Source: an uncultured Rhodospirillaceae bacterium
GTDB lineage: Bacteria > Pseudomonadota > Alphaproteobacteria > MPNO01
DNA: 51,698 nt
Direction of reading: 5' to 3'
Assembly: GCA_964587515.1 (NCBI GenBank)
Contig: CAZPMO010000003.1
Span: 13,002 to 64,699 of the forward strand
The notes below the pieces were generated by a model, which did no database searches, was not told the DNA's origin, and saw only the letters and a list, made by a program, of their open reading frames with translations. The position numbers and the translations under genes are program-made. Position 1 is the stretch's first letter. Each line of letters begins with the position of its first letter. Below are positions 1 through 10,837 of this stretch, one piece after another.

Positions 1-151
1 TGTTGGTGGATCATGGTCTATACAGGCTATGGATGAAGAGTGTGGGTAGTATTGCCAAGGTTGGTGGTGCGTCGAAGGTGGGGGAATGAACGAAATTGTC
101 GTCGCGGCCGCAATGGCGATCCGGCCAATTCGATGCGATGGAGATACCAAA

Positions 152-2050
152 ATGACTGGACGAGTTTCTGGCGTCGTTTTCGGCCGGCTTGTTTCGCTTG
201 CCCTGCCGATGATCATGACGGCCGCGATTTCCATCGGCGTCGTGATCGGAACCGGCGCGGCGGTGGCGGAGCCGGCGACGACCCTGGTGGCTAAGGGTGG
301 CGACGATCTGCTGAAGGGCGGCGACGATCTGCTGAAAGAGAGCGAGAAAAGCGCCGTGAAGAAAGAGGTCGAGGACGCCGAGTCGGTTTCGTCCAAAGCC
401 CACGAAGAGCTGTTCGCCGAAAGCCGCTTTCCCTCGGCCGCCACCTGCGGCACCTGCCATCCGAAGCAATACAAGGAATGGTCGGTTTCCCAGCACTCAT
501 ATGCCCAGCTCAGCCCCGTCTATATGGCGATCAACAATTTCATCAATTCGATCGCCAACGGCAGCAACGGCGATTTCTGCCTGAGATGCCACAGCCAGGT
601 CGGCGCCAGCCTGGGCGAATCGCCGGCGATTTCGAACCTCGACCGGCATCCGACTTCCCGCGAAGGCATCACCTGCGTGGTCTGCCACCGTGTGGACAAG
701 GACTACAACAAGGCCAGCGGCCGCCTCGCGCTGGTCGAGGGTGACCTGCTGCAACCGGTATTCGGTCCGATGGGCAACGCGGAGATGGCGCGCGTCCTCG
801 ACAATACCGACAAATACCGCGTGGTGACCGACCCCAATAAACAGGGCCGCAAGATCCACGTGAAGGTCAAGAAATTCCCGTCGATTTCCCAACCGGTGTT
901 CTGTGGTTCGTGTCACGACGTAACGCTGTTCAACGGGTTCCGGCTGGAAGAAGCATTCAGCGAATACCGTACTTCGCCGGCGGCGGCGCGTGGCGAGACC
1001 TGTCAGGACTGCCACATGGGCAAAATCCAGGGCAAGGTCTCGGGTTACGAGGTGGGCCCGGCGGCGGTGGTCGGCGGCGTACCGACCAAACCGCGCAAGC
1101 TGGCCAATCACTTCTTCGCGGGACCGGATTATTCGGTCATCCATCCGGGCATATTTCCGCACAACGCCGAAGCGCAGCAGATGGCCACACTGCGCGAATG
1201 GTTGCTGTTCGACCACAAGGCGGGCTGGGGCGACGACAAGTTCGAGGACAAGGTCACCGACGCCACCAAGTTTCCGAAGCGCTGGGAATCGGCGGACGAC
1301 CGCTACGACGCGCGCGAAATCCTCAACACCCAGTTCGAACGGCTTGAATGGGCGCATCAGAAGCGGCTGGAAGTCCTGCGCGTCGGTTATCTGATGACCG
1401 ACATCAAGACATTGAAGGCGAACAAGGACGGCATCCAGTTCTCGGTCAAGGTCGAGAACGGAACCGACGGGCATAACGTCCCGACCGGATTTACCGGCGA
1501 ACGGCTGGTGTTTCTCCAGGTCACCGTGACGGACGCCATGGGCAAAATCATTTTCAAATCCGGCGACCGCGATCCCAACGGTGATCTGCGCGATCATTAT
1601 TCGTCCTATGTGCGCAGCGGCGACTTGGAACTCGACGATTCCCTGTTCAGCCTGCAATCGCACTTTGTCGTGGCAAACGGGCGCGGCAGCGAACGCGAAC
1701 GAATCATCCCGATCCCCTATCCGTCGACTTCGCTGCCGCGTGTTCTACCCTCGCCGGTATCGCTGATCTTCACCGGCGAGCCTCCGACCGAGCGCAATCA
1801 TCGCAAGGGGATCGAACCCAACGGACATCGCATCGCCAAATACAAGATCAGCGGCGACGCGCTGACCGGCAGGGGGCCCTATCGCGCCAACATCAAGCTG
1901 ATCTCTCAGATGGCGCCGGCCAACCTGATAGGCGCGATCCAGAGCGTTGGCTTCGATTACGGCATGAGCCCGGCCGAAGTGGTCGCGGGCGTCGCAGCGG
2001 GCGCCGACGTTCTTTGGGAAAAAAATCTGACATTCAATATCGGAAACTGA
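152..2050 (+). CDS. Secreted pentaheme c-type cytochrome
   Basis: ORF 86..2050 has five CxxCH motifs (CGTCH, CLRCH, CVVCH, CGSCH, CQDCH). The ATG at 152 is preceded by TGGAGA (139-144) and gives a signal-peptide-like N-terminus (MTGRVSGVVFGRLVSLALPMIMTAAISIGVVIGTGAAVA/EP). Alternative starts are 86 and 113. Confidence 0.8.
   Translation: MTGRVSGVVFGRLVSLALPMIMTAAISIGVVIGTGAAVAEPATTLVAKGGDDLLKGGDDLLKESEKSAVKKEVEDAESVSSKAHEELFAESRFPSAATCGTCHPKQYKEWSVSQHSYAQLSPVYMAINNFINSIANGSNGDFCLRCHSQVGASLGESPAISNLDRHPTSREGITCVVCHRVDKDYNKASGRLALVEGDLLQPVFGPMGNAEMARVLDNTDKYRVVTDPNKQGRKIHVKVKKFPSISQPVFCGSCHDVTLFNGFRLEEAFSEYRTSPAAARGETCQDCHMGKIQGKVSGYEVGPAAVVGGVPTKPRKLANHFFAGPDYSVIHPGIFPHNAEAQQMATLREWLLFDHKAGWGDDKFEDKVTDATKFPKRWESADDRYDAREILNTQFERLEWAHQKRLEVLRVGYLMTDIKTLKANKDGIQFSVKVENGTDGHNVPTGFTGERLVFLQVTVTDAMGKIIFKSGDRDPNGDLRDHYSSYVRSGDLELDDSLFSLQSHFVVANGRGSERERIIPIPYPSTSLPRVLPSPVSLIFTGEPPTERNHRKGIEPNGHRIAKYKISGDALTGRGPYRANIKLISQMAPANLIGAIQSVGFDYGMSPAEVVAGVAAGADVLWEKNLTFNIGN
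293..334 (+). repeat. In-frame 2 x 21-bp tandem repeat encoding KGGDDLL KGGDDLL
   Basis: aagggtggcgacgatctgctg / aagggcggcgacgatctgctg read directly from the sequence, with one synonymous difference. It lies just after the predicted signal peptide of the pentaheme cytochrome. Confidence 0.9.
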
Positions 2051-2130
2051 TGCAACGATAACCGGATAACGTAAGTCCCGATCGCGACGACACCGGCCGT
2101 GCGGGATCTACAAAGGAAATAGTCGAGACC

Positions 2131-3579
2131 ATGTCGATGGCAAAACAGTACCAGGAACGGGTGGGCGGCGTTGGCGCCGTCTGCGTCTTCCTTATCGCGC
2201 TGATGGCGGCGCCGCTGACCGCCCCGTCGGCGTGGTCCGCGGAGGGATATGGCGGCGGCATTTTCCCGCTCGGCGAAAGAAATCCGCCGCCGAAGTTCCC
2301 GGACAAGCCGGTCCCCTTTAAATCGATCGAGGACCTTCCCGCGCGCCCGGCGCTCGGCATCGAAATCGGCGACCCCTTCCTCGACACCGGCAAGCTCGAC
2401 GCCGGGTTTGAGACGCCCTGGGGTGCCGTCTGGCAGCCCAGACTCTGGGGCTACATGATCTATCGGACCGCGTTTCAACATTTCGAGACCGCGACCCGCG
2501 CCAACAACGAATGGGCCAACCGGCTGGATGTGTTCCTGAACCTCCAGCTCACCGGCACCGAGAAAATACTTCTCAATCTGCGGCCGCTCGACACCAACCG
2601 GCCCACTGAATTCACCCGATACAGCTTCGACGATCCGCGTGGCGGCGAAGGATATGTCGGCGAATATAACTCTGAAGTCGAAGCGCTGTTCTTCGAGGGC
2701 GATCTCGGCAGTCTGATCCCGGCGATCGACCGCGAAGGCATCACGCCCTTGGATTTCGGCTTCACCGTCGGGCGTCAGGCGATCACCTTCCAGGAAGGCA
2801 TGCTGATCAACGATACGGTGAACATGGTCGGGCTGGTGCGCAACAATTTGTATCTGCCGGGGGTGAGTTCGCTCCGCATGTCGGGAATGTGGGCCTGGGA
2901 CCGCGCCGACCGCGGCGTTACGGACGCCGACACCTCGACCTTCGCCCTGTTCAGTTCGGCCGATATGCCGAAAAGCACCGTCAGTCTCGATGTGATCTAT
3001 ATCGAGGATGAAGGCCAGAATGGCGACGCCTTTTATGTCGGCGCGTCGTCGATACAGCGCATCGGACTGTTCAACACCGCGTTTCGCATCAACAACTCCG
3101 TTGCTCTGGATGACGATCGCCAAGGTGTCGCCGACGGCTCGCTGCTTTCGGCCGAGGTATCATGGACACCGCATAACTCAGACGACATCATTTATGTGAA
3201 CCCATACATCTCGCTCGGCAATTTCACGCAGGCGGGCCGCGAGGCCATTGTCGGCGGTCCGCTGGCCGCGCTGGGCATCCTGTTCGCATCGCCGAGCCTC
3301 GCAAACTACGGTGCCGAATTGAATCCATTCACCGATGACGTCACCGGGTTCGCCGCGGGCTATCAGGCTTTCTGGGACAGTCATCGGCGCAATCTCGCGC
3401 TCGAAGTCGCAACGCGGAAAAACACCAGCGGCAGCGGCGGCGATTCGCTGGGGCTGGGCTTCCAGTTGCAACAGGCGCTGGGCCGGCATTTTCAGGTTCA
3501 ATTAGAAGGATTCTACAGTTTTATCGAAAACAGAGACAATTCGAACGGCGCTCGGGTGGAATTGCAGATCGTCTATTAA
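2131..3579 (+). CDS. Putative outer-membrane beta-barrel protein (porin-like)
   Basis: 482-aa ORF with an N-terminal signal peptide (VCVFLIALMAAPLTAPSAWSA/EG). The sequence has an alternating hydrophobic character, many Gly/Asn/Asp turns and no Cys-rich motifs. The C-terminus (GARVELQIVY) ends in an aromatic residue, as in OM barrels. No family could be assigned by eye. Confidence 0.55.
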   Translation: MSMAKQYQERVGGVGAVCVFLIALMAAPLTAPSAWSAEGYGGGIFPLGERNPPPKFPDKPVPFKSIEDLPARPALGIEIGDPFLDTGKLDAGFETPWGAVWQPRLWGYMIYRTAFQHFETATRANNEWANRLDVFLNLQLTGTEKILLNLRPLDTNRPTEFTRYSFDDPRGGEGYVGEYNSEVEALFFEGDLGSLIPAIDREGITPLDFGFTVGRQAITFQEGMLINDTVNMVGLVRNNLYLPGVSSLRMSGMWAWDRADRGVTDADTSTFALFSSADMPKSTVSLDVIYIEDEGQNGDAFYVGASSIQRIGLFNTAFRINNSVALDDDRQGVADGSLLSAEVSWTPHNSDDIIYVNPYISLGNFTQAGREAIVGGPLAALGILFASPSLANYGAELNPFTDDVTGFAAGYQAFWDSHRRNLALEVATRKNTSGSGGDSLGLGFQLQQALGRHFQVQLEGFYSFIENRDNSNGARVELQIVY

Positions 3580-3621
3580 CGCGGCGGCTTTCGGGAGTAA
3601 CGGGGGTTGAGAAGCTAGATC

Positions 3622-4905
3622 GTGTCCACGCTGATGTCAGGCGAGGTGTTCGTGTTGATCGGCGAGATCATCGTGGTCGGGGTGGCATTGCAGACCCTGG
3701 CCCTGGTCTATATTTCGTGGCGCCGGGTCACCCAGGAAAATCGACGATCGCAGGTCGCCTTTCAGTTCCTCGAATCGGAAATCGCCGCGCGGCGCTCACA
3801 CAACAAAGTTGAAGCGGACCGCTCGGCGCTATCGTGGAACGGAACGCGCAAATTCGAAATTCGTCAAAAAACCGTGGAAGGCGGCGACATCTGTTCGTTT
3901 TATCTCGCCCCGCATGACGGCAAACCGCTACCGCCGTTTCTGCCCGGTCAATATCTGACTTTCCATCTCAAGGTTCCTGGCCAGGAAAAGCCTGTCATTC
4001 GCTGCTATTCGCTTTCCGACAGCCCGTCCAACCCGGAACGCTACAGGGTCTCGATCAAGCGGGCGCCGCCACCGCGCGACAACCCCGATGCGCCGCCCGG
4101 CCTGTCCTCCAATTTCTTCCACGACCAACTGGCCGAGGGCGACATTGTCGATGCGAAAGCGCCGTCCGGACATTTCTTTCTGGATCTCAATCGCTATACG
4201 CCGGTCGTGCTCATGTGCGGCGGCGTCGGAATTACGCCGTTGCTCAGCATGCTGCTTGCCATCTGCGAAGGCGATTTCAAACGCGAGACCTGGTTCTTCT
4301 ATGGCGTTCGCAACAAGCAGGAACACATCATGGGCGAGATGTTGCGCGATATCGCCCGAGCGCATGAGAACGTCCATCTCCACGTCTGTTACAGCGATCC
4401 GGAACCGGGCGACCGGCAAGGCGTCGACTATCAACACGCTGAACGGATCAGTCTCGACCTGCTGAAACGCCTGTTGCCGTCCAACAACTACGAATTCTAC
4501 TATTGTGGGCCGCCGCCGATGATGGAGAGCCTGACCCAGGGCCTTAAGGAGTGGGGCGTTCCCGATGCGCAAATCAATTACGAGGCCTTCGTGGCGGCCA
4601 GCGTGCAAAAGGCCAAACCGAAGCCGGCCGCCGGGGCGGACGCCGCGACGGCCTATCAGATCGAATTCGCCCATTCGGGAACGACACTCGACTGGTCCCC
4701 GGATGCGGAATCGATCCTGGAATTCGCCGAAAATAACGGAATTGCCATGGACAGCGGCTGCCGCGCCGGAAATTGCGGCACCTGCCTGACGGCGATCACG
4801 GCGGGCGGGGTCTCCTATCTCAGCGAACCCGGCCAGGCGCCGGAAGACGGATCGTGCCTGGCCTGCATCGCGGTGCCGAATTCCAACCTGACGCTGGACG
4901 CTTGA
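3622..4905 (+). CDS. Membrane-anchored FNR-type oxidoreductase (FAD-binding, NAD(P)-binding, C-terminal plant-type 2Fe-2S ferredoxin domain)
   Basis: N-terminal hydrophobic helix (VFVLIGEIIVVGVALQTLALVYISW). RxYS FAD motif (RCYSLSD), GGxGxxP motif (GGVGITPLLSM) and YYCGPPPM. C-terminal CRAGNCGTCLTAI...CLAC. GTG start at 3622; alternative ATG at 3634. Confidence 0.8.
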   Translation: MSTLMSGEVFVLIGEIIVVGVALQTLALVYISWRRVTQENRRSQVAFQFLESEIAARRSHNKVEADRSALSWNGTRKFEIRQKTVEGGDICSFYLAPHDGKPLPPFLPGQYLTFHLKVPGQEKPVIRCYSLSDSPSNPERYRVSIKRAPPPRDNPDAPPGLSSNFFHDQLAEGDIVDAKAPSGHFFLDLNRYTPVVLMCGGVGITPLLSMLLAICEGDFKRETWFFYGVRNKQEHIMGEMLRDIARAHENVHLHVCYSDPEPGDRQGVDYQHAERISLDLLKRLLPSNNYEFYYCGPPPMMESLTQGLKEWGVPDAQINYEAFVAASVQKAKPKPAAGADAATAYQIEFAHSGTTLDWSPDAESILEFAENNGIAMDSGCRAGNCGTCLTAITAGGVSYLSEPGQAPEDGSCLACIAVPNSNLTLDA

Positions 4906-6005
4906 TGAAAATCGACAACTCCGTTGCCCTTCCCCGGCAACGGCCTTCGAAAAGGATTACGATATTGCAAAATACAGCCCCGTCGATCTGGACTGGACCC
5001 CTAAGGCGCATTGCATGCGCAAGCGCGCTTCTTTTGGCCGTTTTCCTGACCTGGGCCCCGGCCACGGCGGAGATCGTGCTCAGGCTCGATCCGGCCAATG
5101 TCGCCGGCCCCAAGGCCTGTGCGGAATGCCACATCTCGTCGGCCAAGGTGTGGAAGGAGACCCAGCACGCTAAGACGTTCAAGGCGTTGCCGCGCAAGAA
5201 ATCGGCCAAGGAAATCGCCAAGCGAATGGGGCTGCGGCGGATCAAGGCGGGCAGCGATTGCCTGACCTGCCATTTCACCTCTAATTTGAAAAACAACAAA
5301 CCGAAGCCCATCGCAGGCGTGACCTGCGAATCATGCCATGGCGCGGGCAAGAAATGGATCGACGTTCATAGCGATTTCGGCGGCAAGAAAGTTACCGCGA
5401 AGACTGAAAAACCGGCCCACAAGAAAACGCGATATGAAAAATCGGAGGCGGCAGGCATGCTGCGCCCGAGCCGCCTCTATCAGGTCGCGGCCAATTGCTA
5501 TAGCTGCCACACCGTTCCCAACGAGAAGCTGGTCAATGTGGGCGGCCATCCGGTTGGCAGCAAGTTCGAGCTGGTGTCCTGGTCGCAGGGCGAGGTCCGC
5601 CACAATGTCTGGTACACCAAGGAGAACCGCAACGCGGCCGCCAACCGCAAGCGCATGATGTATATCGTGGGCAAGGCGCTAGACCTCGAATTCGCGCTGC
5701 GCGGCGTCGCGAAGGCGACACAACGCGAACGATATGCGGTCGCCATGGCCAAGCGCGCAGCCGCGGCGCGGGCCGATCTGAAAAAGATCGGAGCCGCGAT
5801 TTCCGCGCCCGAGATCAAACAGATCATCCAGATCGGTGACGGCGCAAAGCTCAAACTCAACAACGGAGCGCCACTCACAGCGGCGGCCGACAAGATCGCG
5901 GCGGCGGCGAAAAAGCTCGCCGCAAATCACGACGGCGCGAATTTCGCCGGCGTCGATTCACTGATCCCCAAGCCGGCGAACTACAAGGGCAAGGCGTCGC
6001 AATAA
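4905..6005 (+). CDS. Periplasmic tetraheme c-type cytochrome
   Basis: Four CxxCH motifs (CAECH, CLTCH, CESCH, CYSCH). Signal-peptide-like segment IACASALLLAVFLTWAPATA/EI. The ATG at 4905 overlaps the TGA of the upstream gene (TGATG, 4903-4907). The longer ORF from 4773 overlaps the reductase gene and is unlikely. Confidence 0.8.
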   Translation: MKIDNSVALPRQRPSKRITILQNTAPSIWTGPLRRIACASALLLAVFLTWAPATAEIVLRLDPANVAGPKACAECHISSAKVWKETQHAKTFKALPRKKSAKEIAKRMGLRRIKAGSDCLTCHFTSNLKNNKPKPIAGVTCESCHGAGKKWIDVHSDFGGKKVTAKTEKPAHKKTRYEKSEAAGMLRPSRLYQVAANCYSCHTVPNEKLVNVGGHPVGSKFELVSWSQGEVRHNVWYTKENRNAAANRKRMMYIVGKALDLEFALRGVAKATQRERYAVAMAKRAAAARADLKKIGAAISAPEIKQIIQIGDGAKLKLNNGAPLTAAADKIAAAAKKLAANHDGANFAGVDSLIPKPANYKGKASQ

Positions 6006-6044
6006 CCGACCGGCGACCGCGGTCGGCGGTTGCATGGAGGACTG

Positions 6045-7754
6045 ATGGCCGACGTTTCCGTCGTCGAACGGCCGCAACGCTGGGATAACCCATTCGACCC
6101 GGACATGACGGAGTCCGACGTCGAATGGGTGATGACGCTGCAACCGTTCTGTGACATGGACGAATCAGGTTTTCCCCGGAACTTGTCGCTCCGCGACGTC
6201 ATCCGTAACGATTCCCGCATCACGCGCTACCGCGAGGGCGAGATCATCATCCGCGAGGGAGACTACGGAAATTCCGCCTTCCTGGTGATGGGGGGAACCG
6301 CACGGGTGATTCTCAGCCCGCCGCTTTCGGCGCGTGAACTCGGCCGGCGGGAGATTAAAAAGAAGGGAATCTGGGGAGCGCTGTCGCAAATTTGGCACAA
6401 TCCGCGCGCGCCGGAGGTTCGCGATCGCGCGCAATATTACGACCGCGCGACCAGCGGCGGGCTTGGCGCGGGTGAAAACGATCATACGATGCTGGGCGAT
6501 ATCGCCGCGATCATGGAGCAACACCGCACTGCCCAGTTTCTGGTCGGGGACACGTTCGGCGAAATCGCCGCCATGGGGCGCAGACCGCGCGGCGACACCG
6601 TGTTCGCCGACAGCGACGCGGTGCTGCTGGAAATGCGGTGGCAGGGTTTTCGCGATATCCGCCACCGGGTCGGGGCCTACCGCGACTATACCGACCGGAT
6701 TTACCGCGAACGCGGCTTCGAGGCGCATCTGCGCGAAACCGCGCTGCTCGACCGAATCGATGATGACGGCAAAAACCGCCTGATGAAGGATGCGTCTTTC
6801 CAGAGTTATGGCACATTCGAATGGCATTCCACATACAAGACACTGGCCGATCTGACGTTCAACGAGCGCCTGACCCATGAGCCCGTGATAGCCGGCGCCG
6901 GAGATTATCCGGACAGTCTGCTGCTGATCCGATCGGGGTTTTGCCGCGTCACGGAAAATTTCGGCAACAGCGAACGCACGGTGGGTTTTATCGGCCGCGG
7001 CGAATCGTTCGGCCTCGAAGAGCTCGCCCATAACTGGCAGTACGAGGACGAGATCCCTTATCAGCGCAATCTCAGGGCGCTGGGGTATGTAGATTTGCTT
7101 GTGCTGCCGGCCGTCACGGTGGAAGAAATCATTCTGCCGAAGTTGAATGTTTCACAGATGAGCACGCCGGTCGTCGCCGGTCGGGAAACCGATGAAGTCG
7201 TCGAGGCCGAGGACGGCATGGAAACCGGATTGCTCGAATTCATGGTCGAGAACCGTTTCATCAACGGAACGGCGACCATGGTGATCGATTCGGATCGTTG
7301 CGTCCGCTGCGATGATTGCGTGCGCGCATGCGCGGCGGCGCATGACGACAATCCGCGGTTCGTGCGCCACGGGATGCGGCACGGGAAATATCTGGTGATC
7401 AACGCCTGCATGCATTGCACGGACCCGGTATGCATGATCGGCTGTCCCACCGGCGCCATCCATCGCAGCCCGGGCGAGGGCCAAGTGGTCATCAACGACG
7501 CGACCTGCATTGGCTGCGCGGTGTGCGCGACGAGCTGCCCCTACAACAATATCCGCATGGTCGAAATCAGGGATGAGCAGGGAAGCTTCATTTACGACGA
7601 TCAGTCGAAGGCGCTGATGCAGGCGACGAAATGCGACCTTTGCGTCGACCAACTCGGCGGCCCGGCCTGTCAGCGCGCCTGCCCTCACGACGCCTTGCGG
7701 CGAATCAACATGCAGGACCTTTCGGGGAACTGGGACTGGCTGACGGACAATTGA
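6045..7754 (+). CDS. Cytoplasmic protein with two cyclic-nucleotide-binding-like domains fused to a four-cluster [4Fe-4S] polyferredoxin (NrfC/DmsB-type Cys pattern)
   Basis: N-terminal half has CAP/cNMP-like blocks (REGDYGNSAFLVMGG...FGEIAAMGRRPRGDTVFA and a second LLLIRSGFCRV...GESFGLEEL). C-terminal Cys groups are CVRCDDCVRAC, CMHCTDPVCMIGCP, CIGCAVCATSCP and CDLCVDQLGGPACQRACP. No Sec or Tat signal is visible. ATG at 6045 follows GGAGG; a TTG at 6030 is an alternative start. Confidence 0.8.
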   Translation: MADVSVVERPQRWDNPFDPDMTESDVEWVMTLQPFCDMDESGFPRNLSLRDVIRNDSRITRYREGEIIIREGDYGNSAFLVMGGTARVILSPPLSARELGRREIKKKGIWGALSQIWHNPRAPEVRDRAQYYDRATSGGLGAGENDHTMLGDIAAIMEQHRTAQFLVGDTFGEIAAMGRRPRGDTVFADSDAVLLEMRWQGFRDIRHRVGAYRDYTDRIYRERGFEAHLRETALLDRIDDDGKNRLMKDASFQSYGTFEWHSTYKTLADLTFNERLTHEPVIAGAGDYPDSLLLIRSGFCRVTENFGNSERTVGFIGRGESFGLEELAHNWQYEDEIPYQRNLRALGYVDLLVLPAVTVEEIILPKLNVSQMSTPVVAGRETDEVVEAEDGMETGLLEFMVENRFINGTATMVIDSDRCVRCDDCVRACAAAHDDNPRFVRHGMRHGKYLVINACMHCTDPVCMIGCPTGAIHRSPGEGQVVINDATCIGCAVCATSCPYNNIRMVEIRDEQGSFIYDDQSKALMQATKCDLCVDQLGGPACQRACPHDALRRINMQDLSGNWDWLTDN

Positions 7755-8569
7755 AATTTCTCAGACGCAATTTCGTTTATCTGTTTTTGTCGCTGGTCGT
7801 GGCGATCGCGATCGGCCTTTGGGCCGCCGTCACTTCCGCCTCGCTGAAGGACGTGAATTTCCTGACCGGATGGCTGCTGCTGGGGTCGATGATTTTCCTG
7901 GCGCTGTTCAATGTCCGAAAGAAACTGCCGATGATTCCGCTGGGCTCGGCGGCGCTTTGGCTCAATCTGCATATCTATGTCGGCTGGCTGTGCCTCGGCG
8001 TGTTCCTGATCCATAACGGCATCGAACTGCCCAGTGGCATCCTCGAAGCAGTGCTCGCCGCTCTGTTCCTGCTGGTCGCGCTGAGCGGCATTTTCGGCAT
8101 CGTGATCTCGCGCGAATTCGCCAAGCGGCTGACCACATCGGGCGAAGAAGTCGTGTTCGAGCGCATCCCGGCTTTTCGGGAAAAATTGCGGCAACAGGCT
8201 GACAATGTCGCTCTACAGTCGGTCTCGGCAAGCGGCACGTCGACGCTGGCCGATTTTTACGCCGGCCGGCTGAAATTCTTTTTCGAGGGACCGCGCAACT
8301 TCTTGGGTCACGTGTTCGGCTCTCGGCGGGCGCGGTTTGCCCTGCAAAGCGAGATACAGGCCCTGACCCGTTACCTCGATGAAAACGACCGAGCCTACCA
8401 GCAGGAGCTGTCGGAGCTCGTCCACCGCAAAGTCGATCTCGACCACCATCACGCCCTTCAGAAGACGTTGAAGGGCTGGCTGTTTTTTCATATTCCGCTG
8501 ACCTACAGTCTGTTAATCGTGGCCGTCGTGCATGTGGTGATGGTCTACGCCTTTTCGGGAACGCCATAG
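7751..8569 (+). CDS. Integral membrane protein, about 5 TM helices, with paired His-x13-His helices (candidate di-heme b-type electron carrier)
   Basis: Hydrophobic helices are visible in the translation. His74/His88 lie in LHIYVGWLCLGVFLIH and His247/His261 in FFHIPLTYSLLIVAVVHVV. The proposed TTG start at 7751 overlaps the upstream stop (TTGA). The ORF-track start at 7631 would overlap the upstream gene by 124 nt. Confidence 0.6.
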   Translation: MKFLRRNFVYLFLSLVVAIAIGLWAAVTSASLKDVNFLTGWLLLGSMIFLALFNVRKKLPMIPLGSAALWLNLHIYVGWLCLGVFLIHNGIELPSGILEAVLAALFLLVALSGIFGIVISREFAKRLTTSGEEVVFERIPAFREKLRQQADNVALQSVSASGTSTLADFYAGRLKFFFEGPRNFLGHVFGSRRARFALQSEIQALTRYLDENDRAYQQELSELVHRKVDLDHHHALQKTLKGWLFFHIPLTYSLLIVAVVHVVMVYAFSGTP

Positions 8570-10837
8570 ATGGCGGGCCCACTTCAGTCTTTTGATTTTC
8601 GCGATAGCCGTTACAACCGGCCGACCCAGAAATGGGTGTGCGGCTGGGCGGCGAAGGGCGAGGCCTGCCATGTGGGGCCCGACCACAAAGGCAACTGCGT
8701 CGCGACATCCGAATGCCAGCCGATCCGAAACGGCGACCGCTGGATGTGTACGCGTTCCGAAATCGCAGGTGGACGTTGCACGGATGGCCCCATGCCGGAT
8801 GGCGCCTGCGCCTGTGTCATTCGCAAATGTGCGCCGGTGCGCAGCATCCGCGCCCGTCGCGGACTTTTCGCGCGGGTGGTGTCAGCGCTTACCGTCGGGC
8901 TGGTGCTAATTTTCGTATTCGGACCGTCGGCGCATAAGGTGATATCGCCGGGCGCTCTCACACAGCAACATGCGGAAGTGATCGATTGCGGCACCTGCCA
9001 CGCCGCGTTCCCGGCGGGTCCGACCGGTTGGATTCGCGCGGCCTTCTCCGCGGCTCCAAATGACCCGGCGACCAGCGATTCCGGCCGCTGCCTGAAATGC
9101 CATGCACAGGGCGATTCGGCGCTAAATCCGCACAGCCAGGACGCGGCGATGCTGACGAAGATGCGCAAACGCGCGCATCCGCCTTCCAAGCAAGGAACCG
9201 AACCGCTGATGGTTTCGCTGGCGTCCGGCGGCGACCCCGGCGCGGCAACGGCCGGAAAACTGGCCTGCGCGACCTGCCATCGTGAACATCAAGGTCGCAA
9301 CGCCAGGCTGGCGTCCATGAGCGACGCGCGATGTCAGGCATGCCATACGGCGCGGTTCGCCGGGTTGGATTCAGGTCATCCCGAATTCGACCACTATCCC
9401 TACAAACGGCGCACCCGGCTGATTTTCGATCACATCGGCCATATCGAAAAACATTTCAAGGACAAGAAATTCAAACAATCCGCGCCGGATCAATGCACCA
9501 CCTGTCACAGCCCCGACGCCGCCGGCAACACGATGCTGGTGAACGGTTACAAGACCTGTATGGCCTGTCACGCGGCGCAGATCGTGACCGACGGCGGTGC
9601 GACGCCGGTGTTCGCGGTTCCAGGAATCGATGCCCAGACGCTACATGCCAAGGGCGCCCCGATCGGCGCCTGGCCGGAGGACGCGGAGGCGGAACTGACG
9701 CCGTTCATGGTCCTGCTGCTGTCGGGCGATCCCGATTTCCGAGACGCCTGGAATACGGTTCGGGAGCTGAACCTGCTGGATGACCTGGAAGATGCCGACG
9801 CGGCCCAGATCAAGGCCGCGCAAACCGTCGCCTGGTCGGTCAAACGCCTGATCCAAGACCTCCGTGCGAAGGGCGGGGCCGCTCTGGGCGCCCGCATCGA
9901 AACGGCATTGGGATCGACGATCAGCGGCGAAGACCTTGCCCATCTCGCCGGGCGGCTTCCGGTGGACCTGATCGCCAATGCCCGGCGCGAATGGTTCCCC
10001 GATTTGGACGCGGAAATGAAACAACACCGCGCAGGGGTCCCCGTACCGACCCGCACTGCAAGCGATGACGCGCCCCGATCGGAAAAATCCGCCAAGTCCA
10101 AACCGACCAAGGACACCGGCGACATCCTCGCGGGTGGCGACAAGAAGGACACAGGCGACATCCTCGCGGGCGGCGATAAGAAAGACACAGGCGACATCCT
10201 CGCGGGCGGCGACAAGACGGTCTCCACCGCGCCCGTGGAAGAGAATGTCGCGGAGACCGGCGGTGAAATCGACGCCAACAAATGGACCTCGGCGGGCGGC
10301 TGGTATCGCGACCAGTTCACCCTGCTCTATCGCCCGACCGGCCATGCCGACGATTTCTTGCGATCCTGGATGGATCTCACCGGTGCATCTGACAGTAATT
10401 ACGCCAAGTCCGTCTTCGCCTCTTTGACCGCGCGACAAGCCGTCGGGCGATGCGCCAAATGCCATAGCAGCGACAAGATCACCGAAGCGGCGCTGAAACC
10501 CAACTGGGTTGCCGCCCGACCGGTGAAGGAATTCCGCAAATTCACCGGTTTTTCCCACGCCGCCCATTCGAAGCTGTTCAACGACAAGGCCTGTCTGGGC
10601 TGTCACGTACGGGACGATGACTCGAAATATCTCGACGCATTCAAGAACAACGACCCGGCGGTTTTCCAGTCGAATTTCAAACCCATGGAACGACAAACCT
10701 GCGCGCGTTGCCATACGCCGCAACTCGCCGCCGAATCATGCGTTCTCTGTCATCAATATCACGTGGGAAGTTTCCCGCCGGCGATTACGGCGGCGCCAAT
10801 GACAATACCGCGAGCGGGCGAACGGCCCCGCCCATAA
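8570..10837 (+). CDS. Membrane-anchored decaheme c-type cytochrome with Cys-rich N-terminal domain
   Basis: Ten CxxCH motifs (CGTCH, CLKCH, CATCH, CQACH, CTTCH, CMACH, CAKCH, CLGCH, CARCH, CVLCH). Nine Cys lie in the first 87 aa, followed by a TM-like segment (LFARVVSALTVGLVLIFVFGPSA). The ATG directly abuts the upstream TAG (8567-8572). Confidence 0.85.
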   Translation: MAGPLQSFDFRDSRYNRPTQKWVCGWAAKGEACHVGPDHKGNCVATSECQPIRNGDRWMCTRSEIAGGRCTDGPMPDGACACVIRKCAPVRSIRARRGLFARVVSALTVGLVLIFVFGPSAHKVISPGALTQQHAEVIDCGTCHAAFPAGPTGWIRAAFSAAPNDPATSDSGRCLKCHAQGDSALNPHSQDAAMLTKMRKRAHPPSKQGTEPLMVSLASGGDPGAATAGKLACATCHREHQGRNARLASMSDARCQACHTARFAGLDSGHPEFDHYPYKRRTRLIFDHIGHIEKHFKDKKFKQSAPDQCTTCHSPDAAGNTMLVNGYKTCMACHAAQIVTDGGATPVFAVPGIDAQTLHAKGAPIGAWPEDAEAELTPFMVLLLSGDPDFRDAWNTVRELNLLDDLEDADAAQIKAAQTVAWSVKRLIQDLRAKGGAALGARIETALGSTISGEDLAHLAGRLPVDLIANARREWFPDLDAEMKQHRAGVPVPTRTASDDAPRSEKSAKSKPTKDTGDILAGGDKKDTGDILAGGDKKDTGDILAGGDKTVSTAPVEENVAETGGEIDANKWTSAGGWYRDQFTLLYRPTGHADDFLRSWMDLTGASDSNYAKSVFASLTARQAVGRCAKCHSSDKITEAALKPNWVAARPVKEFRKFTGFSHAAHSKLFNDKACLGCHVRDDDSKYLDAFKNNDPAVFQSNFKPMERQTCARCHTPQLAAESCVLCHQYHVGSFPPAITAAPMTIPRAGERPRP
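10109..10216 (+). repeat. In-frame 3 x 36-bp tandem repeat encoding (KDTGDILAGGDK)x3
   Basis: Three near-identical 36-bp units (10109-10144, 10145-10180, 10181-10216) differing only at synonymous positions. They sit between heme motifs 6 and 7 of the decaheme cytochrome. Confidence 0.9.

Follow-up and report, generated by a model that had tools for sequence, protein, structure and literature searches.

The operon ptdABCDEFG, named for its penta-, tetra- and deca-heme products, was described by Elbon et al. (bioRxiv 10.1101/2023.11.21.568154) in uncultured marine Alphaproteobacteria (UBA11136) of an oxygen-deficient zone. Transcripts of it occur in the largest marine oxygen-deficient zone, those of ptdAB at high levels. 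The products were interpreted as a putative porin–cytochrome complex with a "completely unknown" function, and Fe(III) or nitrogen oxides were proposed as the acceptor. One of them, PtdF, was placed in the cytoplasmic membrane and labelled "ferric reductase-like". Here we analyse a gene at 7751–8569 of a 51,698-nt stretch of DNA from an uncultured Rhodospirillaceae bacterium (contig CAZPMO010000003.1; the whole stretch is called the window). Gene order and composition, and synteny with loci of marine Alphaproteobacteria, Planctomycetota and Nitrospirales, identify this gene as ptdF and the interval 86–10837 as the ptdABCDEFG operon. The initial annotation of the window had seen a membrane protein with the His spacing used to ligate two stacked b hemes but could not match it to a named family. 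A named family does exist for it, that of PtdF. Thus neither the operon nor the "ferric reductase-like" label is new, and PtdF has been described bioinformatically.

The locus in the window is like the published operon in its A–G order and in its succession of pentaheme cytochrome, putative porin, flavin adenine dinucleotide (FAD)/NAD(P) reductase, tetraheme cytochrome, cyclic nucleotide monophosphate (cNMP)-binding and [4Fe-4S] protein, membrane protein and decaheme cytochrome. The heme counts of 5, 4 and 10, the marine habitat and the taxonomic spread are also shared. The organism is different, and the closest database homologue of PtdF is 76% identical to the protein studied here. For PtdE, Elbon et al. 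reported two clusters, whereas four Cys motifs are seen here. The heme ligands, topology and cytoplasmic insert of PtdF are analysed here and have no analysis in that study; a search of the literature brought up no later work on ptd. Our data suggest that PtdF is an inner-membrane diheme b-type cytochrome with bis-His ligation, which would wire a cytoplasmic chain of PtdC and PtdE to the decaheme cytochrome PtdG and so export electrons independently of quinone. We give this reading a probability of roughly two in three.

Conserved histidines and membrane architecture of PtdF

The gene ptdF lies on the plus strand, as do all ptd genes of the window, and encodes a predicted diheme b-type cytochrome of 272 amino acids with five transmembrane (TM) helices; its stop codon is at 8567–8569. 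The TTG start codon at 7751 overlaps the TGA stop codon of the upstream ptdE (7752–7754), and the junction reads AATTGAAA. The N-termini of homologues, which have the form M-x-F-x-x-R-R, line up with TTG 7751 and not with an in-frame ATG at 7631. Because the homologues begin at the aligned position, the TTG start is favoured. A start at ATG 7631, giving 312 amino acids, was rejected on the same alignment and because it would overlap ptdE by 124 nt. Translation of 7751–8569 places the codons of four histidines at 7970–7972 (H74), 8012–8014 (H88), 8489–8491 (H247) and 8531–8533 (H261). The initial annotation had given these four residues and their codons correctly. It had also been right about the TTG start, as judged by the codon overlap and the N-termini of homologues, and about a polypeptide of 272 residues with an insert of about 110 residues before the last helix, which hydropathy and the structural model both reproduce.

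Conservation of the histidines was named beforehand as one point on which the heme reading could fail, and it was examined in an alignment of 264 full-length homologues (33–76% identity to the query) collected by word-indexed and exhaustive profile searches. None of the 264 homologues lacks H74, H88 or H261, and only one lacks H247 (263/264), so that the four histidines are invariant with a single exception. Among the other histidines, H187 is conserved in 89% and H233 in 55%, and H225 and H232–234 are variable. Two tryptophans, W70 and W243, are invariant in the family, and each stands four residues before the first histidine of its own helix. G40 in TM2 and G113/G116 in TM4 are invariant as well. 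In cytochrome b, conserved glycines on the helices that carry no ligand permit close packing of the hemes. The H-x13-H pattern itself is only modestly unusual for one sequence: PtdF has nine histidines in 272 residues, two or more such pairs arise in 2.3% of its shuffles, and the protein contains a third, incidental pair (H233–H247). It is the conservation across the alignment that is decisive and excludes chance.

An AlphaFold2 model built on 49 homologues reached a predicted local distance difference test score (pLDDT) of 89.3 and a predicted template modelling score (pTM) of 0.80. The model and hydropathy agree on five TM helices, at residues 2–30, 35–58, 67–89, 97 to about 120 and about 241–268. 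In the model, the helix with TM4 covers residues 97–129, and TM5 is the last third of a long helix at 211–268. TM3 (7949–8017) carries W70, H74 and H88, and TM5 (8471–8554) carries W243, H247 and H261. The two histidines of a pair are thus 14 residues apart on a single helix. This corresponds to about 21 Å along the helix, the heme–heme spacing in known diheme b bundles. TM3 and TM5 can also be aligned with each other in register (W-x3-H...H; hhalign E 6e-4, probability 28%). This match is suggestive of an internal repeat, as a weak hint and no proof of duplication.

The family-wide numbers of Lys plus Arg are 2.6 at the N-terminus, 3.3 in the TM2–TM3 loop and 3.0–3.6 in the flanks of the insert, compared with 0.85 in the TM1–TM2 loop, 0.86 in the TM3–TM4 loop and 0.3 at the C-terminus. 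These counts fit the positive-inside rule with the former group on the cytoplasmic side and the latter on the periplasmic side. They place the N-terminus and the insert in the cytoplasm and orient TM3 and TM5 alike, from the inside outward. In the predicted topology, therefore, H74 and H247 lie within a few residues of the cytoplasmic side of the membrane, and H88 and H261 are close to its periplasmic side. The two pairs sit within TM helices at matching membrane depth, as hydropathy, the model and the charge bias all indicate, which was a further expectation of the initial annotation. The insert between TM4 and TM5 (8111–8470; residues about 121–240, some 110–120 amino acids) is helical in the model, with pLDDT above 90 and helices at 136–161, 165–179, 184–188, 193–208 and from 211 onward. 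It contains the conserved motifs GEEV(I/V)FERIP, PRN..H187, RYL and K227..D231.

Gene neighbourhood, predicted electron route and alternatives

A word-indexed search found more than 960 homologues of PtdF, all unnamed in the databases. A profile search returned 2958 cluster representatives at E<1e-3, of which 509 remained at E<1e-30. In a genome scan, PtdF was present in 556 species-level genomes of more than 10 phyla, almost all of them metagenome-assembled genomes (MAGs). The carriers include Alphaproteobacteria (Rhodospirillales, Hwanghaeella, Kiloniellales), Planctomycetota, Verrucomicrobiota, Flavobacteriaceae and Gammaproteobacteria, and also Nitrospinota, Nitrospirales, Poribacteria, Gemmatimonadales, Lentisphaerales and Thermoanaerobaculia. 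Since Pfam and NCBIfam have no model for the family, its members are annotated only as "hypothetical protein".

The proteins of the window were searched by tblastn in 82 fetched loci, many of them on truncated contigs. These loci represent more than ten phyla, almost all as MAGs, and include Alphaproteobacteria, Planctomycetota, Verrucomicrobiota, Flavobacteriaceae, Gammaproteobacteria and Nitrospinota. ptdG is directly downstream of ptdF in 81/82 loci and ptdE directly upstream in 79/82, always on the same strand. ptdC was found nearby in 66 loci, ptdD in 68, ptdA in 31 and ptdB in 32; the Verrucomicrobiota loci of this set apparently lack ptdA and ptdB. Across these loci, the conserved core is C-(D)-E-F-G, and PtdF is its only predicted polytopic membrane protein. 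Domains, motifs and synteny agree with the context given in the initial annotation, in which the membrane protein stands between a cytoplasmic polyferredoxin gene and a periplasmic decaheme gene. In one homologue of 843 amino acids (P0178), PtdE and PtdF are in one open reading frame with no stop between them. Either the fusion is natural, or a frameshift arose in assembly at the overlapping junction of TTGA type. A genuine fusion would support a PtdE–PtdF complex and would place the N-terminus of PtdF on the same side of the membrane as the Fe-S protein.

Our data show gene structure, conservation, topology signals, cofactor motifs and synteny; we infer heme binding, the partners and contacts of PtdF, and the direction and terminal acceptor of an electron route, which would run as follows. 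One heme would be ligated by H74 of TM3 and H247 of TM5 on the cytoplasmic side of the membrane; the other, some 20 Å from it towards the periplasm, by H88 of TM3 and H261 of TM5. Electrons would pass from NAD(P)H to the FAD and 2Fe-2S cluster of PtdC, through the four [4Fe-4S] clusters of PtdE to the inner heme b, and then to the outer heme b and PtdG. PtdC belongs to the FNR-type reductases, in which electrons taken from NAD(P)H leave one at a time by way of a 2Fe-2S domain. PtdG, anchored by its own TM helix, would hand the electrons on to PtdD and to the porin–cytochrome pair PtdA/PtdB. The cytoplasmic insert between TM4 and TM5 might be the docking platform for PtdE. Its position, which is that of the donor-facing TM4–TM5 loop in NOX-type enzymes, and its conserved motifs make it a plausible docking surface. 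Such a route would bypass the quinone pool. Outward flow would be favoured by both redox and membrane potential and inward flow opposed by both, which argues for electron export or delivery of reductant over an energy-conserving step. The four invariant histidines, their matched depths and the synteny lend in silico support to the transmembrane wire that the initial annotation had proposed.

PtdF is the only ptd component able to join the cytoplasmic Fe-S/flavin chain to the periplasmic heme chain. The reading of the entire system therefore turns on whether PtdF is such a wire with two hemes. On one reading ptd is an NAD(P)H-driven, quinone-independent export system, which could serve iron reduction, redox balancing or the feeding of a periplasmic reductase; on the other it is a quinol-linked respiratory branch. 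The export module, if it exists, would link cytoplasmic reductant directly to a periplasmic or extracellular acceptor in many uncultured bacteria of sea and soil (the 556 species-level genomes). The system is widespread and environmentally relevant, nearly all of its carriers are uncultured, and the four invariant histidines offer a simple experimental handle on PtdF.

Several results weigh against PtdF as a diheme cytochrome fed by PtdC and PtdE. The protein of the window has no above-threshold match in Pfam or NCBIfam, and a phmmer search of PDB sequences and a family profile search gave nothing relevant. Foldseek with the full AlphaFold2 model against the PDB returned no cytochrome b, NOX, STEAP or b561 (best E 0.27, to an unrelated protein). 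With a model of the TM1–4 fragment (pLDDT 86.6) it again gave none of these and nothing significant, the best hit being unrelated at E 1.5. Alignment of the PtdF profile by hhalign to MsrQ (probability 0.3%) and YodB (<1%) of E. coli was negative, the targets being shallow single sequences from MG1655. Both Foldseek and hhalign with single sequences have little sensitivity for short TM bundles, and PtdF may still have the ferric-reductase fold. The donor side also varies. A Nitrospirales MAG contig (L067, 1180–3640) has ptdD followed by ptdF and ptdG with PtdE absent, and a 155-residue protein with a TM helix and a 2Fe-2S ferredoxin replaces PtdC, so that the donor chain is not universal. Finally, the metatranscriptomes examined, which were the RNA runs of the same studies, contained no transcript of ptdF and nothing on ptdC–G. 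Only two contigs, each of 151 nt and both from run X14, mapped to the first 11 kb of the window, at 1672–1822 (ptdA) and 2006–2155 (ptdA–ptdB junction). Their location fits the published remark that ptdAB is highly transcribed. Two sets of hits from these searches were set aside: TcpC-like_C and DUF2207_C (E 0.05–0.08) were dismissed as noise, and the TorS/NarQ sensor domains (Foldseek E 0.27–0.75) were rejected as generic helical-bundle matches driven by the cytoplasmic insert.

The lack of any curated family, solved structure or fold match to a cytochrome speaks for a PtdF without heme, in which the histidines would be ligands of a metal, either transported or structural, or the protein would do no more than tie PtdE and PtdG to the membrane. 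The 2.3% of single-sequence shuffles that contain two H-x13-H pairs point the same way. However, with four invariant histidines, spaced 14 residues apart in pairs on each of two helices that run parallel and at equal depth, and with invariant glycines on the other helices, PtdF shows the signature of a bis-His diheme bundle, and the redox chains encoded by the flanking genes on both sides of the membrane need a connection. We regard a heme-free PtdF as the least likely of the explanations considered. Somewhat more probable is a PtdF that reacts with quinone as a cytochrome b comparable to NarI, FdnI, HydC or the CbcL b domain, which would link the (mena)quinol pool with PtdG and leave PtdC and PtdE in a separate or regulatory role. 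The known inner-membrane entry points of extracellular electron transfer, CymA, ImcH and CbcL, are quinol dehydrogenases. Weak Ni_hydr_CYTB matches in 11/49 members and the L067 variant lacking PtdE are also in line with it. But the 4-bp ptdE–ptdF overlap, the adjacency of the two genes in 79/82 loci and the one fusion protein argue for a physical PtdE–PtdF complex, and 66/82 loci also conserve a dedicated NAD(P)H reductase whose output domain is of the 2Fe-2S type. No motif of a quinone site came to light, though none was specifically testable. A quinol-linked PtdF thus appears unlikely to us.

Electrons might also flow inward. Fe(II) or another outside or periplasmic donor, or a substrate oxidised by the NrfA-like PtdA, would then deliver them through PtdG and PtdF to PtdE and PtdC, and on to NAD(P)+ or ferredoxin. 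There is precedent in the Mto and Pio porin–cytochrome systems, which run in the uptake direction, and ptd is found in Nitrospinota and nitrite-oxidising Nitrospirales, whose lithotrophic life depends on reverse electron flow. On bioenergetic grounds, however, the membrane potential should oppose inward flow through a simple two-heme wire. Reduction of NAD(P)+ is uphill from most periplasmic donors, and no proton-coupled element that could pay for it is evident. FAD and 2Fe-2S reductases of the BenC, MmoC and PaaE type normally oxidise NAD(P)H, too. We consider inward flow very unlikely, and quinone-independent export by way of PtdC, PtdE, PtdF and PtdG remains our preferred reading.

Other ptd genes and the remainder of the window

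The first gene of the operon, ptdA (86–2050), encodes a pentaheme c-type cytochrome with five CxxCH motifs, matches to Pfam multiheme families and an N-terminal hydrophobic signal or anchor. The product of ptdB (2131–3579), of 482 amino acids, is a putative outer-membrane porin with a signal-peptide-like N-terminus. It has no Pfam match, and its position is that of the PtdB "porin" of Elbon et al. ptdC (3622–4905) encodes a membrane-anchored FAD/NAD(P)-binding reductase (Pfam FAD_binding_6, NAD_binding_1 and Fer2) with a C-terminal plant-type 2Fe-2S domain. An N-terminal TM helix at about residues 8–31 is followed by RR. The reductase half of PtdC resembles that of flavohemoprotein (E 1e-74), and the protein is similar to BenC, MmoC, PaaE and the reductase half of Hmp. 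In a Hwanghaeella sp. MAG (L001, 4166–6193), PtdC has 675 amino acids and consists of an FHA domain, a long Ala/Pro-rich linker, two TM helices and an FNR-like reductase. The two helices put both the FHA and the reductase part in the cytoplasm. By its domain assignment, the FHA part adds a phospho-threonine-binding regulatory module beside the cNMP-binding domains of PtdE.

ptdD (4905–6005) encodes a predicted periplasmic tetraheme cytochrome c with four CxxCH motifs, a signal-peptide-like segment ending in ATA-E and a match to Pfam Cytochrome_C554 (1.2e-16). Its reading frame is open from 4773, and the likely start is ATG 4905, which overlaps the stop codon of ptdC. In the L067 contig, PtdD is apparently split by a frameshift, possibly through an assembly error. 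The 24-nt gap between ptdD and ptdE (6006–6029) contains a short GC-rich inverted repeat, ACCGACCGGCGACCGCGGTCGGCGGT, which might form a hairpin. ptdE (6030–7754) encodes a protein predicted to be cytoplasmic, which combines cNMP-binding domains with a C-terminal [4Fe-4S] ferredoxin module of four clusters. It has no signal peptide and matches Pfam cNMP_binding (3.2e-21, in three stretches) and Fer4 families. The four 4-Cys [4Fe-4S] motifs are at residues 424, 460, 493 and 535. The junctions between the ptd genes of the window are tight: TGATG between ptdC and ptdD, TTGA between ptdE and ptdF (4-bp overlap), and TAG-ATG between ptdF and ptdG, where the ATG of ptdG abuts the stop codon of ptdF.

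ptdG (8570–10837) encodes a decaheme cytochrome c with ten CxxCH motifs, in which a Cys-rich N-terminal domain and one TM helix (about residues 97–122) precede the periplasmic heme domain. The N-terminal domain, of about 90 residues (residues 1–96, 8570–8860), contains eight cysteines, C24, C33, C43, C49, C60, C70, C80 and C87. All eight are kept in all 41–43 homologues that have the domain (loci L004, L008, L010–L013 and others). A basic stretch ahead of the TM helix indicates that this domain is cytoplasmic, so that PtdG would not be purely periplasmic. The domain could bind zinc or an Fe-S cluster and could touch PtdE or the insert of PtdF. PtdG of the Hwanghaeella type (689 amino acids) apparently lacks it. 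At about residues 505–545 (about 10070–10200), PtdG of the window has a 12-residue unit, KDTGDILAGGDK, repeated three times in tandem in an acidic low-complexity linker. The linker lies between heme motifs six and seven and divides the decaheme part into six and four hemes.

The remainder of the window (10853–51698) looks like ordinary chromosome with a GC content of 62.5%. It carries genes for two FAA-hydrolase proteins, hydantoinase/oxoprolinase A and B, a DUF2336 protein, a DinB-type polymerase, a luciferase-like monooxygenase, a TRAP transporter (DctP/DctM), a ShlB-type two-partner-secretion transporter, a CHASE2-PAS histidine kinase and a CobQ-like amidotransferase. The open reading frames scanned included none for heme-b or cytochrome c maturation.

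Comparison with known cytochrome families

The initial annotation had suggested comparing PtdF with the folds and profiles of ferric reductase, MsrQ, b561 and FdnI. No significant match came from this, and the similarities that did appear are sub-threshold Pfam matches in 49 homologues. DUF4405 matched 34/49 on TM3 or TM5 (best E 7.6e-5 to 1.2e-4; best score 23.6 bits against a gathering threshold of 26.7). Ferric_reduct (PF01794), which gave no match to PtdF of the window, matched 11/49 with at most 17.7 against 28 bits, its model positions 2–56 corresponding to TM2–TM3, and Ni_hydr_CYTB (PF01292, the prokaryotic cytochrome b561 family) matched 11/49 with a best score of 20.6 against 30.1 bits. 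The cytochrome b models PF00033 and PF13631 matched none of the 49 members. Weak but recurrent, the matches to b-heme membrane families count in favour of the heme reading, as does the label that Elbon et al. gave to PtdF independently. PtdF probably has its place at the margin of the two-heme cytochrome clan, as a family for which there is no curated model.

DUF4405 cytochromes and FezC were reported to bind heme b (Light lab, mSystems 2024, PMC11334425). The DUF4405 proteins have six TM helices with four central, highly conserved histidines; they were proposed to pass electrons across the cytoplasmic membrane and are associated with flavinylation (ApbE) (PMC11334425). PtdF is similar to DUF4405 (PF14358) in having four central conserved histidines in TM helices, and this family is its most frequent Pfam match, located on the His-bearing helices. 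It differs in its five TM helices, the 110-residue cytoplasmic insert and the Fe-S and multiheme partners, and PtdF of the window itself has no DUF4405 match.

The members of the ferric-reductase superfamily (PF01794), such as NOX/DUOX, FRE, STEAP and MsrQ/YedZ, have a cytoplasmic N-terminus and His pairs on TM3 and TM5 that stack two b hemes across the bilayer. PtdF has the same predicted orientation, with its His pairs on parallel TM3 and TM5 and its TM4–TM5 loop facing the cytoplasmic donor. The TM helix of PtdC, which would run from outside to inside ahead of the NAD(P)H/FAD reductase, is similar to TM6 of NOX ahead of its dehydrogenase domain. Unlike PtdF with its five helices, the superfamily has six. 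In ptd, moreover, the reductase is a separate protein of the Hmp/FNR type with 2Fe-2S, and a polyferredoxin is interposed. A more far-reaching proposal, which we offer only tentatively, is that PtdC, PtdE, PtdF and PtdG form an NAD(P)H-fed, quinone-independent export module, possibly gated by cyclic nucleotides. PtdF would then found a new five-helix diheme-b family outside the curated ones, its TM4–TM5 loop would have expanded into a four-helix cytoplasmic dock for the polyferredoxin, and PtdC would supply in trans the sixth helix and the dehydrogenase of a NOX-like ancestor.

Cytochrome b of the bc1 and b6f complexes has His-x13-His on two helices (B and D) of a four-helix bundle, hemes about 20 Å apart and glycines on the two helices without ligands. 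PtdF is similar in the His-x13-His spacing and in the conserved glycines on other helices, but no sequence, profile or fold match between them was found. PtdF also has no elements of a Qo or Qi site, is much smaller and has other partners. In TmcABCD, HmcABCDEF and DsrMKJOP of sulfate reducers, a cytochrome b in the membrane connects a multiheme cytochrome c of the periplasm with an Fe-S protein of the cytoplasm. Their families match neither PtdF nor PtdE beyond generic 4Fe-4S similarity. These complexes share the functional logic of ptd, but they differ from it in that their b subunits are NarI-like, their Fe-S subunits are CCG/HdrD-like and their electrons flow mostly inward, towards sulfite reduction in the cytoplasm.

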